Shown here: positions 4,865 to 61,896 of the stretch, one piece after another
How positions within the stretch are numbered: the stretch's first letter is position 1
Layout: each line of letters begins with the position of its first letter
Source: a virus
Taxonomy: Duplodnaviria > Caudoviricetes
Length of the DNA stretch: 64,000 bases
Reading direction: 5' to 3' (one strand)
IMG/VR virus record: IMGVR_UViG_2974666105_000001
Coordinates: 1-64,000 of that record
The notes under the pieces: generated by a model
The model's input: only the letters and a program-made list of their open reading frames with translations
The model's database searches: none
What the model was told of the DNA's origin: nothing
Made by a program: the position numbers and the translations under genes

Positions 4865-5890
4865 TCACCCCTGAATCACGTACAAGCCGCTCTTGTCAGT
4901 TAGTGCATTATACTGCGCTTGGGTGACGACATTGATTACTGCATTATCACCCTTATCACCTTGGTCGCCCTTATCACCTTTATCTCCCTTGTCACCTTTA
5001 GCGCCGACAAGAGAGGCCAGCCATTGATTTACACTTCCAGAAAATCCAGCATTAACGGCAACTTGATAAGCAGAAATTCCTTGGTCGCCTTTGTCGCCTT
5101 TATCACCCTTGTCACCTTTAGCTCCAGTGTCACCTTTCATACCTTGCGAACCACTTAAATCGGCAACATACGTGAAGCTGGTGCCGTTCCACACATAAAG
5201 CTTACCGTCATCAGGGTCATTGACATCACTGGCAATCATGGTGAAATCACCATCGGAGAAGCCGGCACCGTTCATTGTAGCGATTGACGGGAACGTCTTT
5301 ACGATTTGGAAATCCTTCCCAGCGTCACCTTTGTCGCCTTTATCACCTTTAGCACCAACGAGAGAAGCAAGCCATTCCGCTTGTGAACCGTGATAGCCAT
5401 TAATTACCGCCACTTGGTAGGCAGATAGGCCATCATCACCTTTATCACCTTTATGGATTGTGCTTGCGGCCTCATTCATTGCTTGCACAAAGTCATCAAA
5501 AGTAATGGTGGTAATCGTGCTACCACCACTATCTTCAATGTTACTATTAATCATGAATCCTGTCATTGTATTGCTTGGATAAATTGACACTCCTGTTGAG
5601 TAAGTGACCCAAACTTCTAACAGGTATGATCCTGCTGGTAATCCGCTCATAAAGTTGGAATCAAAACTAATAACAATTTGACCAGATAAAGGATCAGTAA
5701 TACTTGACGTAGGAATGGTTTGAGACTTTAAGTATCCAGAATTGTTACCAAGTTTTGCGATGATACTCGTCGCGTTAGTAAGGTCAACAGGGTTACTATC
5801 TTCACCCAATACCATTGTGAAGCTGGTAGTTGTATCACCGATTTTTACAGTTTGAGCAGAAGTATCAGTAAACTCTAATGTTTTTGCCAA
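4865..5890 (-). CDS. BppU-like baseplate/fibre protein with collagen-like (Gly-X-Y) repeats
   Basis: N-terminal BppU-like domain (VKIGDTTTSF...YLLEVWV...IYPS); several (GDK)n runs. Confidence 0.8.
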   Translation of the reverse strand: MAKTLEFTDTSAQTVKIGDTTTSFTMVLGEDSNPVDLTNATSIIAKLGNNSGYLKSQTIPTSSITDPLSGQIVISFDSNFMSGLPAGSYLLEVWVTYSTGVSIYPSNTMTGFMINSNIEDSGGSTITTITFDDFVQAMNEAASTIHKGDKGDDGLSAYQVAVINGYHGSQAEWLASLVGAKGDKGDKGDAGKDFQIVKTFPSIATMNGAGFSDGDFTMIASDVNDPDDGKLYVWNGTSFTYVADLSGSQGMKGDTGAKGDKGDKGDKGDQGISAYQVAVNAGFSGSVNQWLASLVGAKGDKGDKGDKGDQGDKGDNAVINVVTQAQYNALTDKSGLYVIQG

Positions 5891-30110: not shown

Positions 30111-30183
30111 AGCGAATAATCGGACTCGAACCGATGTTATCAGATTGGAAATCTAATGTGTTGCCCAACTACACTATATTCGC
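30111..30183 (-). tRNA. tRNA-Gly(TCC)
   Basis: GCGAATA/TATTCGC acceptor stem, TTAGA-TT TCC AA-TCTGA anticodon arm, GGTTCGAGTCC T arm, U73; no encoded CCA. Confidence 0.9.
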
Positions 30184-30325
30184 ATAAAGTCCCCACTTGG
30201 GCCACATTGTTAAGAGGTGTGTGGGGTGCGATTGTGTATGGTCGGATAAGTAGACGTCACTTATCGGGACTAGTGGTCAGATACAAAGCCTCTGCCGGGC
30301 AATATGGCGACCTCAACCATATTTA

Positions 30326-30522
30326 TGTGATTACTAGGGAGTCGAACCCTAGACTTAATCTGATTCTAAGCACCAACTTCTGTGCTAGTGTCGAACTAGC
30401 TCGCCATCAGATTTCAGATATTGCATAACTCAATGGCCCCCTGTATTTCAGCGTGCACATAGCCTACTCTGTGAGAGCATATGAATTAAGCTTTAGCATT
30501 TTTACCTTTCCGCCATAATCAC
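30326..30522 (-). ncRNA. Oversized tRNA-Leu-like RNA (197 nt)
   Basis: Perfect GTGATTA/TAATCAC acceptor stem, A73, Leu-type D arm (TGGCGGAA..GGT..ATGC), TAGGG-TTCGACT-CCCTA T arm; about 110 extra structured nt in place of the anticodon arm. Confidence 0.65.
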
Positions 30523-30554
30523 GTGTTAAAATGTAAGTTTTATTAGTAATACAA

Positions 30555-30704
30555 CCACCCAGGCGGGTATCGAACCCACGCACAACGAATGCCTTTGTTC
30601 AAGCACGCTGTTAATCTCTACTATTTTGACAAAAGCTGACTAAGGCTATGCAGCGACATACCTTTAACCACTCGGAAGATTGATGTGCTCTCCATGACTG
30701 GGTA
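30555..30704 (-). ncRNA. Oversized tRNA-Ser-like RNA (150 nt)
   Basis: TACCCAG/CTGGGTG acceptor stem, G73, GTGGG-TTCGATA-CCCGC T arm, variable-arm hairpin, displaced CCGAGTGGTTAAAGG D motif. Confidence 0.55.
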
Positions 30705-30741
30705 AAATTAAGCTGGTTTTGTAGAGTTCCATAAACTCTTA

Positions 30742-30813
30742 CTGCTCGGGCTGGGATCGAACTAGCGATCTCTTGATTAACAGTCAATTATTCTACCGCT
30801 GAACTACCGAGCA
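30742..30813 (-). tRNA. tRNA-Asn(GTT)
   Basis: TGCTCGG/CCGAGCA acceptor stem, TAGTTCAGCGGTAGAA D arm, CT GTT AA loop, T arm, G73. Confidence 0.9.
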
Positions 30814-56270: not shown

Positions 56271-56971
56271 TTTCTAGTCCCCCATGATCTCTTGCCTGTC
56301 ATATTAAAAAATTCCTTGTCGGTTAGATAACCAAGCTCGACTAGTTTCGCTTCAATTAAGTCCAAAACAAAATTACGATCCCCCATATTAGACTCAAAAT
56401 CAAGGTTGTCTCTGTTGATCCTAATAATCGGGGCTTCACTATATGAGTCTGCCCAATTTTTAAACCCTTTGTTAATTGACCTGTAGTATTCAACTAAGTT
56501 TGGATCTGCTGTTTCCATGTCTCGTCCGCGTCCGATAATATCTTCAATTTCCTTTTCTGGGCTAATATCCAAGAAAACATATAGATCTGGATAATGTCCT
56601 TTAGGAGTAGCACTAATAGAATCAAGCATGTGTCGCAATAGCTTTAAATAGAGATTATATTCCTGATCTGTTGTTTCTCCTCTATCATGGATCACTTTAT
56701 ATACGATAGAGTCAGCTACTAGATTTGAATCCATAACAGCTTTTTCATCAACAACGGCATCTCTTAGCTGTGAAAATCTTTCATCAAGCCAGGCGATTTG
56801 TAACGGGAATCCAAATTTTTTACGTGTTTCTTTTCCGCCTGAGTAGTAATCCTTCAAAATCGGAATGGCATATGGATCTTCCAAATATTCTTTTGCCCCC
56901 AGATCCTCACTCAAAATCTTTACTAAAGTGCTTTTACCACTCCCAAAAGCCCCCATAACATTAATCAGCAT
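56267..56971 (-). CDS. Deoxynucleoside kinase
   Basis: GAFGSGKST P-loop, LQIAWL..RF, PDLYVFL, GRDME motifs. Confidence 0.92.
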   Translation of the reverse strand: MLINVMGAFGSGKSTLVKILSEDLGAKEYLEDPYAIPILKDYYSGGKETRKKFGFPLQIAWLDERFSQLRDAVVDEKAVMDSNLVADSIVYKVIHDRGETTDQEYNLYLKLLRHMLDSISATPKGHYPDLYVFLDISPEKEIEDIIGRGRDMETADPNLVEYYRSINKGFKNWADSYSEAPIIRINRDNLDFESNMGDRNFVLDLIEAKLVELGYLTDKEFFNMTGKRSWGTRK

Positions 56972-57463
56972 TACTTTGTCTCCTTTGTATGCGAATATTT
57001 AAACATTTCATTTTTAAAGTCATCATAGTATTCAACAGGAATTTTATAAGGTTCGTCAGTGCCATCGTCAACAAATACATTAAACAATTTTTGTCCATCA
57101 TAAAGACCAACAAAGATTACATGTGACAGCATGATAGTTCCCCTAATCCCATCCTTTTCATAACCAAACATATATGTTTCCCTCCTAAATTAGATATGGA
57201 ATAATTGAAACGTAGGCATGAATACCAATATAATAAGCCGTATCATTTACCCCATTTTGTAGTCTAAAATCCCCTACACTCAATGATTTAGCCCCGTACA
57301 CGTGAGCCAAGTTGTTATACCGTCTCGTAATATTAGACTTAACAATCTCCAAATCTTTATCAACACATTGATATTCTATCCCATCAGATGAAATAGTTCC
57401 AATATACACTGTTTCACGTTCAAATCCGCCAATTGGACTATAAACGTCACTCCATTCGCTCAT
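56971..57463 (-). other. Two hypothetical CDSs (56971-57171, 57185-57463)
   Basis: ORFs with RBSs. Confidence 0.7.
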
Positions 57464-57482
57464 ATTATCAGCTCTTCTACAT

Positions 57483-57553
57483 ATTATTCATTTATGTGTA
57501 TACATATACAATATATAAACATAAATATGAATAATAATACAATATATAAACAT
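57483..57553. repeat. AT-rich element: 17-bp direct repeat inside an inverted repeat
   Basis: ATACAATATATAAACAT at 57506 and 57537; TATTATTCAT/ATGAATAATA arms. Confidence 0.75.
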
Positions 57554-57606
57554 TTTATTCATATAAAGCATTATAAAAGTCGTATTTTATTAAATCTGTG
57601 CTATTC

Positions 57607-58002
57607 TTAATAATTATTCAATCTATTAATTAATGTGTCAAGTTTTCTTGATAATTCTGAGGTGTCGATCTGCACTGACATCGCTAATTGTTTGTTAAAG
57701 TTTTCTTGCTTTTTCTTTTGAGATTCTTTCAGCAAATCGTCAGTCGACACAAAACGATCGCCGTTATCAACAATACCACCCTTTAAACTATTTTCCCAAT
57801 TCCTCCAACGTTTCGCATATTCAATAATTTTCCCGATTTCGACATTAACATTGTCTTTCTTGCCAGCACGGTCAGCATACTTAAAAATATTAAACTTATA
57901 TGCCCCTCGCATCTCGTCTTCTGTGAGAATTTTTTCCATATGATCCAACAAATCTTTCCCACCATGTTGATAGTGTTCTGGGATAATCTTTTCTTCTGCC
58001 AT
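57607..58002 (-). CDS. DUF3310-family protein
   Basis: PEHY..GG...GAYKFNIFKYADRAGKK...EIGKIIEY. Confidence 0.85.
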   Translation of the reverse strand: MAEEKIIPEHYQHGGKDLLDHMEKILTEDEMRGAYKFNIFKYADRAGKKDNVNVEIGKIIEYAKRWRNWENSLKGGIVDNGDRFVSTDDLLKESQKKKQENFNKQLAMSVQIDTSELSRKLDTLINRLNNY

Positions 58003-58013
58003 TTCAGTTCCTC

Positions 58014-58581
58014 CTATTTAAATTCAATTACGGTGTCTGATAAACTAATTTCATCACTGTCTTCTCCAAATACCAATGAAACTGGTTTCCCACTCCCATA
58101 GACAGCTGCAACACCACTAGCATTGTACTTTTCTTTCAGCTTGTTAGCAACAATATCCATAATGAATTCACTTCTGTTAATTGTTATGACATTCCGATTT
58201 TTATCATAATCGAACAAATCTAATAACTCTAGTAGCATATCCTGCTGAGCACTGATTTTATCATATTCGTTTTCATTCATAATAATCTTTTTATCCATTC
58301 TTAATTGTCTCCTCTGCGTATGATTGTAATTTATGATCAAAATAAGACATAATTTCTTTGTCAATATCTTTATTAGTTGCAATAATCGGTTCATCATCGG
58401 TACTAAACCACATGATTAAGCAATCCGTGTCTCCAAATACAAATGGATAACTAATCTTAGTGACGCTTTTACCGTCCTGATCATAACGTTCAAGTTCTAC
58501 ATTTTGTTCATTGTAAGACCCATCAAAGAAATGATCTAAAAAGTCATACATATTTTCAACTGTTAATTTCTTTTTTCTCAT
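58014..58581 (-). other. Two hypothetical CDSs (58014-58298, 58291-58581)
   Basis: ORFs with RBSs. Confidence 0.7.
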
Positions 58582-58618
58582 ATTATATTCCCCGTCTTTA
58601 TTTTATTAACTGAATACA

Positions 58619-58721
58619 ATTATAGCATTAAAACATCCAATTGTAAACAAAACTTTATGTTGACTTAAAAATAATTCCGTGTTAATATTGTATTTACAAA
58701 CAAATGAAAACTTAATAAGCT
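58619..58721. promoter_or_regulatory. Divergent sigma-A promoters
   Basis: Minus: TTTACA-17-TATAAT (58647-58619). Plus: TTGACT-17-TAATAT with TG (58660-58688) and TTTACA-17-TAAGCT (58693-58721). Confidence 0.75.
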
Positions 58722-58727
58722 ACAAAT

Positions 58728-59545
58728 ATTCAACGCAGACAACCTACTGCGGAACTAACAAATGGGTATGTGCTGGCATGGCTTTAGGGAAATTGAAGTA
58801 ATGTCAGTCGAGTCAAGTAGCAAAAAACTCCAAAAGCTACTAATCATTAAGATGAACGCTAAACCGACAAAATATCGGCAAGCGGAAGATGGGGTGGAAA
58901 GGGACAAGGTTCGCGCGGCTTGTGCTAAGTTAGACACTGGCAGATATGGTTTCTGTTATTTTCTATAAATAGGCACCGTGACTTAACTCAATCCGAAAGG
59001 CAGACTAACAGATATGTGAAAACTAAGCTTCTGGGACGGACGGCGTAGAAGCAGAAAGTTAGTTGATTGGTTGAAATACCAATTAGAGACAATTTCTCTT
59101 GTATACGCGATGCGCTCAGTGTTGCGAAACTAATTACAAGTCTTTGCTCCTTAGTCAGTGTATTAGTCTGCACTTTTTCGTTGACTAAGGCAAAGACTTG
59201 TTCCGCTCAACAACTCGTATTACAAAACTGGTAGCCGAGACTTTCGTTACTTTAAATCCTAACTAAACAAAACAAATAACAACCAAACTTGATATTAATT
59301 GGATTTGGTTTTTGGTTTTTAGTTTTTAGTTTTGGTGACACGTATGTGTGTCACGGTTGGTGCTAGACTAATAACGCTTATTAGCTACTAGCGCGACGTT
59401 GCCCGAAAGATGGTGAGAAACTGGCCCTTCGGCAGGAACACTATTCAGTTGATCCCAGCTAAGCCGAGCTGTTTTCTAAAGCGAGACCCTTAGCACTATG
59501 CTAATTAGAACATATTTGGACTTATGTTAGTTAATTATGAGATTA
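58728..59545 (+). ncRNA. Large structured ncRNA, ROOL-like core (~58990-59545) plus extra 5' domain
   Basis: Many strong stems (e.g. ACAAGTCTTTGC/GCAAAGACTTGT enclosing CTTAGTCA/TGACTAAG), dedicated promoter, and motifs colinear with ROOL as I recall it. Confidence 0.65.
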
Positions 59546-59620
59546 CAAAAAAGTGGTTGAAAAAACTATATGTTGTGTTATAATTAAATCATATAAAGTA
59601 TTAATAAGGAGTAATTTGTA

Positions 59621-60259
59621 ATGAGTGGTATTGAATCTTGGAAACTACAACCAGAGTTTTGTTTTATCGAAGTGAGCACATTAGGTAACGTGCGCACACT
59701 TGATAGAGTAGTACCATGTGGAAAAGGGACACAATTCGTAAAAGGGCGAGTGTTGAAGCAACAATGTGACAAAAACGGTTATCTACGTGTGCATTTCCGC
59801 GGAAATGGAAAAAATTTTTTTAGGTTCGTCCATCGTCTTGTGGCTCAAACTTTTATTCCTAACCCTGATAACCTACCAGAGGTTAATCACAAGGATTGTA
59901 ATCCAACAAACAATAACGTTTCAAATTTGGAATGGATTACACGTAAAGGTAACAATCAATATCGGAACAAATATGGAGTATCATACAAAGAAGCCGCGCG
60001 AAAGAAACCTGTATGTGCAATCAACTTAGATACCTTAGAAGTATACCGTTTCCCCTCACAAATGGAAGCGAGTCGCGTTTTGGGAGCTAACGTAGGACAT
60101 ATTAATGATGTTATATTAGGAAAACGAAACCACACGCACGGTTATTGGTTTACAAACGCCGATAACAATGCCATAGAAGCCACCAGAGTTAAGCTTGGCA
60201 ACAGCATGGCCCGTAAGGTTGAAGAATTGATGATTAATAAAGAATTACAATTAGTATAG
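59621..60259 (+). CDS. NUMOD4-HNH homing endonuclease
   Basis: WKLQPEFCFIEVSTLGNVR, VHRLVAQTF, VNHKD; own promoter at 59557-59584. Confidence 0.92.
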   Translation: MSGIESWKLQPEFCFIEVSTLGNVRTLDRVVPCGKGTQFVKGRVLKQQCDKNGYLRVHFRGNGKNFFRFVHRLVAQTFIPNPDNLPEVNHKDCNPTNNNVSNLEWITRKGNNQYRNKYGVSYKEAARKKPVCAINLDTLEVYRFPSQMEASRVLGANVGHINDVILGKRNHTHGYWFTNADNNAIEATRVKLGNSMARKVEELMINKELQLV

Positions 60260-60295
60260 AAACATTTGAAAAGGTAATATAATAGTAAAAAAGAG

Positions 60296-61139
60296 GTGAT
60301 TATGTTGAATGTTTCTGAGTATAAAAGAAAAGTAGATCTTGAAAATAAAGATGAAGAGTTATGTAAATATGAAGAATTTATTAAAAATGAAATAAGACAT
60401 GGGTATGATTACATTTTATTATCAGAAGACAAAAATATTGGTATTGGATTGACATATCACAAGTCATCACCATTGGCAAAAATATTTGAAAATAAAATCA
60501 ATGAAATCGGAAATGTTGATTGTCATAAAATATTTTCGAATCCGATGCGTTTGCCATCAGATGAATACTTAATTGAAAATTACTCGTTGATAGATGGAAT
60601 TTCTTACGCTGAAAAAGATGTTACAATAAAATATAAGAAATTGTTCTTTTACAAAGATATAACTGTACATGCTAAATTGCTTAAAATAAATTATTAGTGA
60701 GGGAAATATGGAGATTGGTGATAGTGTTTTAGTTCGTGGAACAACGTTAGCCGGCAAGATAGTTGAGATATTTGATCCATTTTGTATATGCGACAGTGAT
60801 AAAGAGATGTTTTCAGTTGAAATTGATAGAAAAGATAATAAAAAGGAATTAGCAATATTTGAATTGACTAGTTTACAGAAAGTGTGAGATTTATATTTGA
60901 AAGAAGTTAAGGACAATAAAATAGAAATTAACGGAGAGTTGGTTTCACTTGAAGACTTGTGCCAAGTTGTAGCCGAGTCAGATTCGATTGCAGGACTAAT
61001 TACCCAAAGATTTAATTTTATTGGATCAAATCAATCATGCCTTGATAAAATATCTAATACGGATGTTAATCCCGAACGTGGATCACATTTTTCAATTGCA
61101 GTCGCTAAATGGTGGACAGTTGAAAAGAGTGGTGTATAA
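60296..61139 (+). other. Three hypothetical CDSs (60296-60697, 60708-60887 missing from track, 60897-61139)
   Basis: ORFs with RBSs. Confidence 0.7.
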
Positions 61140-61141
61140 CT

Positions 61142-61579
61142 ATGGGATTACAACATTATGGAAACAAGGTAGAATATGATGGATTCACATTTGATAGCAC
61201 TAAAGAGTTTAACTTTTACAAGAGATTCATTAAAGATTGCGGCTATACTTTTAAAGTTCACGAAAAATTCAATCTAATTGAAAAGATAAAAATAAACGAT
61301 AAAATGTCCATTAGAAGTCTGACATATAAGCCTGACTTCATTATATTCAACAAGGATGGTGGTATTAAGCACGTTTATGATGTCAAAAATGGATATACTC
61401 CTTATGCGATTGATCGTGGAGCTGCAATATCGTTTAAATTGTTTGCTAAAAAATACGGCATTCCTGTTGAAGTTGTTGTTATCAGAACGCATGATTTTAA
61501 GACAAAAATATTGGGGACAACAAAGAAATATGATGTAAAAATTAGAAACGATGTTGACTATGATTGGAGAGAAAACTGA
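61142..61579 (+). CDS. DUF1064-family PD-(D/E)XK nuclease
   Basis: YGNKVEYDGFTFDS.KE...YKPDFII...YDVKNG. Confidence 0.85.
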   Translation: MGLQHYGNKVEYDGFTFDSTKEFNFYKRFIKDCGYTFKVHEKFNLIEKIKINDKMSIRSLTYKPDFIIFNKDGGIKHVYDVKNGYTPYAIDRGAAISFKLFAKKYGIPVEVVVIRTHDFKTKILGTTKKYDVKIRNDVDYDWREN

Positions 61580-61896
61580 TGTATAGAGAATTTAAGGGGG
61601 GACTTGACGGAGTAACCTTGGATGAAATTAAAGAAGAATTTTTTGAAGATTACTATGATCAAGAACACTCAGCAGATGAGCGAGTCGAGGACGTTAAGAG
61701 ATTTATTAAAGAACAAAGCAACGGTTTCTTTGAGGATTACTATTGTGAACAATACTTAGCTAAAACACCATCCCAACAAGTTATGTCTGATCAGGACAAT
61801 GTTTGTCATTTTGTTGAGATTATGGCATCATATGTTATTACTGGCGAAGATGATGATTTACCATATGATAAAGATTTATTTTTTATCGGAAATTAG
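61579..61896 (+). CDS. Acidic hypothetical protein
   Basis: ATG overlaps the upstream TGA. Confidence 0.75.
   Translation: MYREFKGGLDGVTLDEIKEEFFEDYYDQEHSADERVEDVKRFIKEQSNGFFEDYYCEQYLAKTPSQQVMSDQDNVCHFVEIMASYVITGEDDDLPYDKDLFFIGN

Follow-up and report, generated by a model that had tools for sequence, protein, structure and literature searches.

A pseudoknotted 0.53-kb RNA gene of Lactiplantibacillus plantarum phages that shares structural modules with the plasmid motif GEBRO

What does a phage keep in a stretch of about 1 kb that is poor in open reading frames (ORFs) and lies between two operons? The question arises from a 64,000-nt window, the whole stretch of DNA that we analyzed (positions 1 to 64,000 of IMG/VR virus record IMGVR_UViG_2974666105_000001, Duplodnaviria; Caudoviricetes; the source record is complete, 79 kb). 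Here, an ORF-poor stretch at 58582-59620 forms the gap between a leftward and a rightward operon. An initial annotation, made from the letters of the sequence, had placed in this gap an RNA of about 0.8 kb with a core like that of the giant RNA ROOL and an extra ~260-nt 5' domain. We find that the gap contains a strongly supported gene for a large structured RNA of ~0.53 kb, transcribed rightward. The segment 58696-59235 (plus strand) probably encodes a compact non-coding RNA that has its own strong promoter and is related to the plasmid motif GEBRO, not to ROOL or to the other giant RNA, GOLLD.

58696-59235, plus strand: core structured RNA of ~0.53 kb (aligned block 58703-59235), with 63-98% identity in 14 sequences and covariation

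Conservation of the core extends to 10 isolates of L. plantarum phages, which belong to two unrelated virus groups, and to six metagenome contigs, which came from a pattern scan of metagenome contigs. The RNA region is ~94-95% identical to that of Lactobacillus phage Nyseid (Tybeckvirinae, Lenusvirus). Matches with 69-75% identity are found in the siphoviruses Gut-P1, Satyr, Maenad, Lenus, P1, P2, and ATCC 8014-B2 and also in LP65, an unrelated myovirus (Herelleviridae); in none of these phage records does the matching region carry an annotated gene. In viral contigs, the pattern AACCTAC..GGTANG..CTTTAG gave more than 112 chance matches, none with the RNA. Covariance model R1, built from part of the core (see below), had no match in 151 sampled Bacilli genomes, whose candidates were scored in part, a result that says nothing on absence. 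A literature search returned no prior description of this RNA in L. plantarum phages.

Covariation supports an elaborate fold. RNAalifold applied to the 14 sequences predicted 95 pairs, 40 of which show compensatory changes. Scanning all pairs of alignment columns for covarying helices yielded a model of 110 pairs in 23 helices, including four pseudoknots. In the 14 sequences, 97.2% of the cells of this model are paired, versus 85.3% after shuffling and ~42% with slid partners. The covariation that the initial annotation had proposed as a check is present: both sides have changed in 51 of the 110 pairs, the covariation score is 0.411 versus 0.19, and none of 500 shuffles equaled the model. The paired cells contain 184 G-U but only 13 A-C combinations, an excess which argues that the plus strand folds; folding energy alone cannot separate the strands (z of -3.2 for plus and -4.2 for minus). 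Substitutions in the core track base-pairing, not codons. Several unpaired elements are invariant, namely AACCUAC, CUUUAG, GAUGAA, ACUUAAC, AGGCAAAG, and CAUUACAAAC. The analysis shows that 58696-59235 has no coding capacity and adopts a multi-junction fold, in which three or more pseudoknots are well supported. The fold comprises the following elements:

58735-58750, plus strand: hairpin GCAG/CUGC with the invariant AACCUAC loop, 100% paired, 2 pairs changed on both sides (helix 1)
58772-58808, plus strand: hairpin with an apical loop (58787-58794, GGGAAAUU) that is pseudoknotted with 59091-59098 (helices 3 and 4)
58816-58841, plus strand: hairpin AGUAGC/GCUACU, whose loop CUCCA (58828-58832) pairs with UGGGG (58890-58894) (helices 5 and 6)
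58858-58883, plus strand: "CUAA" hairpin, a second block with a likely counterpart in GEBRO (model positions ~192-219), from the match of model R2 to plasmid pUA140 (helices 8 and 9)
58921-58975, plus strand: hairpin domain between the two GEBRO-matching stretches (helices 13-15)
59005-59062, plus strand: three-way junction of a CUAA/UUAG closing stem, a GAAA-loop hairpin, and a GCUUCU/AGAAGC hairpin, shared with GEBRO (helices 17-19)
59038-59041, plus strand: loop bases that pair with 59200-59203 in a candidate pseudoknot, 89% paired, 2 pairs changed on both sides (helix 20)
59064-59085, plus strand: hairpin also present in GEBRO, its loop of the UUGAAAUA type, 6 of 8 pairs changed on both sides (helix 21)
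59091-59098, plus strand: 3' strand (AAUUUCUC) of the 8-bp long-range closing helix, 100% paired, 5 of 8 pairs changed on both sides
59140-59197, plus strand: long hairpin, variable at its tip and conserved in its basal 9 bp (GUCUUUGCU/GGCAAAGAC) (helix 23)

The long-range helix 58787-58794/59091-59098 encloses a domain of ~310 nt. Its two strands vary together and are complementary in every variant: GGGAAAUU/AAUUUCUC, GGGAAAUU/AAUUUCCC, GGAGAUUU/AAAUCUCC, GACAAAUU/AAUUUGUC, GACAGAUU/AAUCUGUC, GGUGAAUU/AAUUCACC, and GGAAAAUU/AAUUUUCC. The pseudoknot 58828-58832/58890-58894 occurs in six complementary variants, including CUCCA/UGGAG, UCUC/GAGA, UUCC/GGAA, GUCU/AGAC, and CUACA/UGUAG.

Individual helices named in the initial annotation can be judged against this model. 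CGCAG/CTGCG, GTAGC/GCTAC, and GCTTCT/AGAAGC show covariation, and so does ATTGGT-tgaaat-ACCAAT (59066-59083), with the six doubly changed pairs listed for helix 21. A nested hairpin drawn at 59136-59201 is conserved in its basal 9 bp, which also covary, but its tip is variable. The local hairpin AGAG..TTCTCT is replaced by a distant pairing, in which TTTCTC joins GGGAAA ~300 nt upstream (58787-58794), and GCTAG/CTAGC is not preserved in relatives. The supposedly extra ~260-nt 5' domain is in fact the best-conserved part of the element; covarying long-range helices tie it to the remainder, making it half of the pseudoknotted core.

58660-58688, plus strand: promoter of the RNA, sigma-70 type (TTGACT, 17 nt, TG-extended TAATAT, that is, TGnTAATAT), from the sequence and a survey of homologues

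This promoter predicts a transcription start near 58695-58698. Wherever the 5' flank of a homologue is available (12 cases), TTGAC(A/T) is found at this site, followed after 16-18 nt by a -10 box, even though the promoter sequences differ between lineages. In 11 of the 12, the -10 box is TG-extended and ends 12-15 nt before the first aligned base; the exception is 8014-B2, where the TG extension is missing and the -10 box abuts the aligned start. The view of a large, ornate RNA driven by its own promoter stands, and so does its placement at the point where two operons diverge and away from transfer RNA (tRNA) genes. The window has two tRNA genes (30111-30183 and 30742-30813, minus strand), 28 kb from the locus, and a whole-window Rfam scan at gathering thresholds returned these two and nothing else.

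GEBRO (RF02988) is the only Rfam relative that we found for the phage RNA. It is an RNA motif of plasmids pUA140 of Streptococcus mutans and pSt0 of S. thermophilus (Weinberg et al. 2017, PMC5737381). The authors of that study observed that it lies between the two origins of a plasmid with rolling-circle replication, and they considered a function in replication, perhaps in the form of single-stranded DNA (PMC5737381). The GEBRO covariance model matches 58994-59085 at model positions 249-338 with 37.1 bits (E 1.6e-8; 2.5e-10 in a second search), which does not reach the gathering score of 284.7 bits; true GEBROs, recovered from pUA140 and pSt0, score 290-347 bits. The relation is also seen from the opposite direction, with two models built from the phage alignment, R1 (58978-59102) and R2 (58810-58909). 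R1 finds the 3' ends of the GEBROs as its top match in each plasmid (pUA140, 39.4 bits, E 5e-8; pSt0, 38.5 bits, E 9e-8). R2 matches pUA140 at 5312-5402 (21.8 bits, E 0.002) and pSt0 weakly (10.1 bits, E 1.2), and in each plasmid its best match lies directly upstream of that of R1.

Neither R1 nor R2 matches anything in a ROOL locus, the Harbinvirus loci, or an L. plantarum plasmid (the latter two are described below), and a sequence-only profile of the core has no match in the latter two or in the GEBRO plasmids. The 5' third of GEBRO (positions 1-145; hairpins 7-22, 60-98, and AGGGCGAAAGUAGGU) has no counterpart in the phage RNA by model search and alignment, and R1 and R2 reveal no GEBRO counterpart of the hairpin domain 58921-58975. 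Because the 5' third is missing, extra domains are present, and sequence profiles detect no likeness, we file the phage RNA as a distant, enlarged relative of GEBRO, or at least as a sharer of its modules; by the Rfam threshold it is a non-member.

Downstream of the core, the element changes in character.

59258-59335, plus strand: lineage-specific hairpin of an A/C-rich and a G/U-rich arm (linker), which folds in this phage
59336-59356, plus strand: hairpin GUGACAC/GUGUCAC, bordering the 3' module on its 5' side
59357-59515, plus strand: separable 3' module (dom3), ~170 nt, conserved in sequence

The core is present in 14 of 14 sequences, and Lenus has it without the 3' module. Conversely, Lpa804, Bromius, Dionysus, Iacchus, and Bacchae, all Harbinvirus phages, have the module but not the core, and the same holds for 31 small plasmids of Lactiplantibacillus, Loigolactobacillus, and Weissella. 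Since each part exists without the other, the "0.8-kb RNA" resolves into a 0.53-kb core, which is confirmed, and an optional tail, which is not an integral portion. The segment 59236-59515 is an optional add-on that consists of a lineage-specific hairpin and a mobile ~170-nt module. The alternative offered in the initial annotation, a tandem or two-part locus, was right about modularity but not about the joint, which lies near 59235-59350 and not 260 nt from the 5' end.

The hairpin 59258-59335 had been picked out correctly as a fold of this phage; however, Lenus, LP65, and 8014-B2 do not have it, and a comparison of five sequences revealed no covariation in it. Its G/T-rich arm is a tandem TTTAGTT repeat of 4.3 copies (59304-59333), with one unit fewer in Nyseid. 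GTGACAC/GTGTCAC also folds as a hairpin, but its sequence is not kept: P1, Lpa804, Bromius, LP65, and the plasmid have hairpins of other sequence at this position. For the 3' module itself, RNAalifold predicted no pairs and hence no consensus fold; by eye, the first hairpin and a CGU...ACG hairpin recur, but others do not.

The surroundings of the 3' module differ from one replicon to another. In Bromius, it lies in a 1.36-kb gap (locus L009, 526-1882), in which the sole ORF of at least 40 aa is a 52-aa reverse-strand frame inside the module. This gap is 97% identical over 935 bases in Lpa804 (L008) and is located upstream of genes for a nicotinamide riboside transporter and a nicotinamide mononucleotide adenylyltransferase. 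It contains a promoter-like TTGAAA..TGGTATACT near 635-658, ~800 nt at its 5' end unrelated to the core, a long hairpin at ~1225-1320, and, at its 3' end, the module, and may encode a second, different large RNA with the same 3' cassette. In the L. plantarum plasmid NZ_CP140094.1, ~2.9 of 6.35 kb (L012, 335-3225) are devoid of ORFs of at least 60 aa except for one 70-aa frame. This stretch includes a Bacillus-plasmid RNA motif at 1232-1292 (66 bits), 20-bp repeats in 2.6 copies at 1148-1199, and the module on the minus strand at 2290-2519; no recognizable Rep is among the listed genes or ORFs. Both plasmids that we opened have a DUF536-like gene (L012, 3226-3765, minus strand; L222, 196-699, plus strand) followed by ~700 ORF-free bases and the module in the same orientation, which suggests that these three form a conserved unit. 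An 18-base pattern, CGGCAGGAANNNTATTNAGTT, gave 78 matches in genome contigs, none in Lactobacillales and none related to the 3' module by profile. They are mostly from Bacteroidota and Ignavibacteria, and their number looks above chance.

We weighed four other accounts of the locus. In the one that fares best, although we consider it unlikely, the element works as DNA: the plus strand would fold when unwound, serving as a replication origin or single-strand initiation site, with the 3' module as a lagging-strand origin similar to a single-strand origin (sso). The GC skew changes sign at the RNA locus, where two operons for nucleotide and DNA metabolism diverge; GEBRO lies between two origins of a rolling-circle plasmid, for which a single-stranded DNA role has been raised; and the 3' module resides in small Lactobacillaceae plasmids. 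On the other hand, a strong promoter kept in position (except in 8014-B2) is directed into the element, GAAA-loop hairpins and several pseudoknots are typical of RNA, and we found no iterons or tandem repeats at the locus.

The sso part of this account can be compared with ssoA. Like ssoA, the 3' module is a non-coding element of ~160-170 nt on small plasmids of Gram-positive bacteria, and several copies contain GCCGAGA, the core of recombination site B (RSB), and TAGCG(T/C), which resembles conserved sequence 6 (CS-6). In ssoA, however, a single long hairpin carries RSB at its base and CS-6 in its loop, whereas the 3' module has the two motifs in reverse order, ~90 nt apart. No conserved long hairpin is predicted for the module, its profile does not match palA of pT181, and the plasmids checked that carry it have a DUF536 gene and no recognizable rolling-circle Rep. 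With its motifs reversed, no common hairpin, and no palA match, we judged the sso reading of the module to be weak.

A second account, a long cis-acting leader such as a riboswitch or attenuator of the rightward operon, is very unlikely. The element is oriented like the rightward genes, and no strong terminator separates it from them, but the operon has a near-consensus promoter of its own, 3' of the element.

59557-59584, plus strand: separate promoter of the rightward operon (TTGAAA, 16 nt, TATAAT, TG extension, 11 of 12 matches)
59621-60259, plus strand: gene for an I-HmuI-like HNH homing endonuclease (NUMOD4, HNH_3, and I-HmuI NUMOD-like domains), in some relatives only

Moreover, the downstream gene varies between the HNH endonuclease, unrelated small ORFs, and, in LP65, orf82, and an element of 0.5 kb with four pseudoknots is far above known leader size. 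The rightward operon beside the locus encodes the endonuclease, a Holliday-junction resolvase, and other proteins, and the leftward operon encodes nucleotide kinases and small unknown proteins. The endonuclease gene directly follows the RNA locus in this phage, Nyseid, Gut-P1, P1, and Lpa804, but not in Lenus, Satyr, or 8014-B2. Comparison of this siphovirus with Lpa804, a myovirus, gives 85% identity for the non-coding DNA 5' of the gene but only 62% for the proteins (59621-60259 versus L008, 1742-2362).

Membership in ROOL or GOLLD, or an enlarged variant of either, is the account with which the initial annotation began. Size and ornateness are comparable, the home is a phage and the host belongs to the Lactobacillales, and GOLLD likewise combines a widely shared 3' part with variable 5' parts. 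Nevertheless, cmsearch with the ROOL model (RF03087, gathering score 99.1 bits) gave no match at E ≤ 10, neither in 58500-59700 with lax filters nor in the whole 79-kb genome, and the same holds for the GOLLD model (RF02032, gathering score 150 bits) in the region and the genome. The ROOL model does work on a true ROOL, with 130.4 bits for megaplasmid pMP118 of L. salivarius. A Rfam scan of nine homologous loci (E ≤ 0.1) returned nothing either, because filters are stricter on 35 kb. With the phage models blank on the ROOL locus and the tRNAs 28 kb off, the "ROOL-like core" has to be given up, and a place in either family appears improbable in the extreme.

That the locus codes for one or more small proteins has practically no chance of being correct: the window has four ORFs of 55-68 aa here (58755-59234), but all four, whose conservation would have spoken for translation, are disrupted among the 13 homologues, whether by stops in frame, by indels that shift the frame, or by a lost start codon, and three are disrupted already in ~95% identical Nyseid; substitutions follow pairing.

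Several points weigh against a GEBRO-related non-coding RNA. Single-stranded DNA of the plus strand would tolerate G-T pairs too. The GEBRO match spans ~200 of 350 model positions and scores 37 versus 285 bits, sequence-only profiles are blind to it, and the shared modules could stem from convergence or module exchange rather than common descent. RNA libraries (four runs, compared with 56600-61600) contain contigs at 2-8x over parts of the RNA and neighboring genes, and one run is probably DNA; at this low depth and with flanking genes spanned too, the contigs do not directly establish a discrete transcript. A scan of 12 homologues revealed no conserved intrinsic terminator; a weak terminator-like hairpin, a possible 3' end in this phage, occurs among them only in the window and Nyseid.

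59456-59479, plus strand: weak terminator-like hairpin with a 5-bp stem followed by UUUUCU

Finally, what we say about function is drawn from analogy.

With these points in mind, we still favor the compact, GEBRO-related non-coding RNA, and its mode of action can be sketched. Host RNA polymerase would presumably transcribe it early from the sigma-70-type promoter. A compact fold with multiple pseudoknots and many invariant unpaired bases suggests a particle that is recognized by its shape. The RNA may act in trans as such a folded particle: it could assemble with itself, or it could serve as scaffold or decoy for a macromolecule of the host or the phage. It does not resemble an antisense regulator. 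Since its only relatives are on plasmids, a role common to phages and plasmids is favored, and we lean toward the replication or maintenance of extrachromosomal DNA, or toward escape from a host system that targets such DNA. A broader proposal is more tentative, and we consider it possible rather than probable: the phage RNA and GEBRO could represent one superfamily of large RNAs for extrachromosomal replicons of Lactobacillales, in which the phage form would either build a higher-order particle of RNA alone, like ROOL and GOLLD, or directly start or control replication, and the 3' module, found behind three unrelated large 5' regions free of ORFs, would be a shared functional cassette.

To our knowledge, few bacterial or phage RNAs longer than 500 nt have intricate conserved folds: rRNA, RNase P, group I and II introns, OLE, GOLLD, ROOL, and raiA. 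Each of these large RNAs led to new biochemistry or, recently, to RNA-only cages. The phage RNA is a further well-supported giant microbial RNA, so far uncatalogued, and explains an "empty" gap of ~1 kb in at least 10 deposited phage genomes. It also links the orphan plasmid motif GEBRO to phages for the first time, which narrows the roles of GEBRO to needs common to plasmids and lytic phages. Cultured phages and a tractable, food-grade host make experimental work straightforward, with Lenus (without the 3' module) and Nyseid (with it) as natural controls.

How does the phage RNA compare with these known systems? Both it and ROOL are large RNAs with multiple junctions and pseudoknots, from phages and plasmids of Lactobacillales. 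ROOL assembles into an RNA-only cage of eight chains. The two differ in that covariance models match in neither direction and in their location: ROOL is usually found beside tRNAs or in prophages, whereas the phage RNA is away from the tRNAs (30111-30813, on the other strand) and its carriers are virulent. With GOLLD it shares the format of a giant phage RNA, and the conserved 3' and variable 5' parts of GOLLD recall the 3' module shared behind differing 5' parts. Again, there is no model match, and here the structured, covarying part is the 5' core, whereas the 3' module is without a consensus fold.

GEBRO is the closest of these systems, albeit with differences. It is 350 nt long versus ~530 nt for the phage RNA, which has additional hairpin domains (58735-58808, 58921-58975, and 59140-59197) and additional pseudoknots. 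GEBRO is on rolling-circle plasmids, between double-strand origin (dso) and sso, whereas the phage RNA belongs to virulent phages and has its own strong promoter. In both, the three-way junction is followed by the UUGAAAUA-loop hairpin, a block that is significant in both search directions and whose helices 17-21 covary in the phages, and a "CUAA" hairpin probably stands just 5' of the junction, with the order kept. In both, too, the strand 3' of the UUGAAAUA hairpin pairs far upstream and closes a domain (113-121/342-350 in GEBRO), a resemblance that we treat as an analogy of layout and not as evidence of homology. Finally, both RNAs are on extrachromosomal DNA of Lactobacillales and are GC-enriched relative to their surroundings, with a GC content of 0.37-0.45 in the phage element versus 0.24-0.29 in its flanks.

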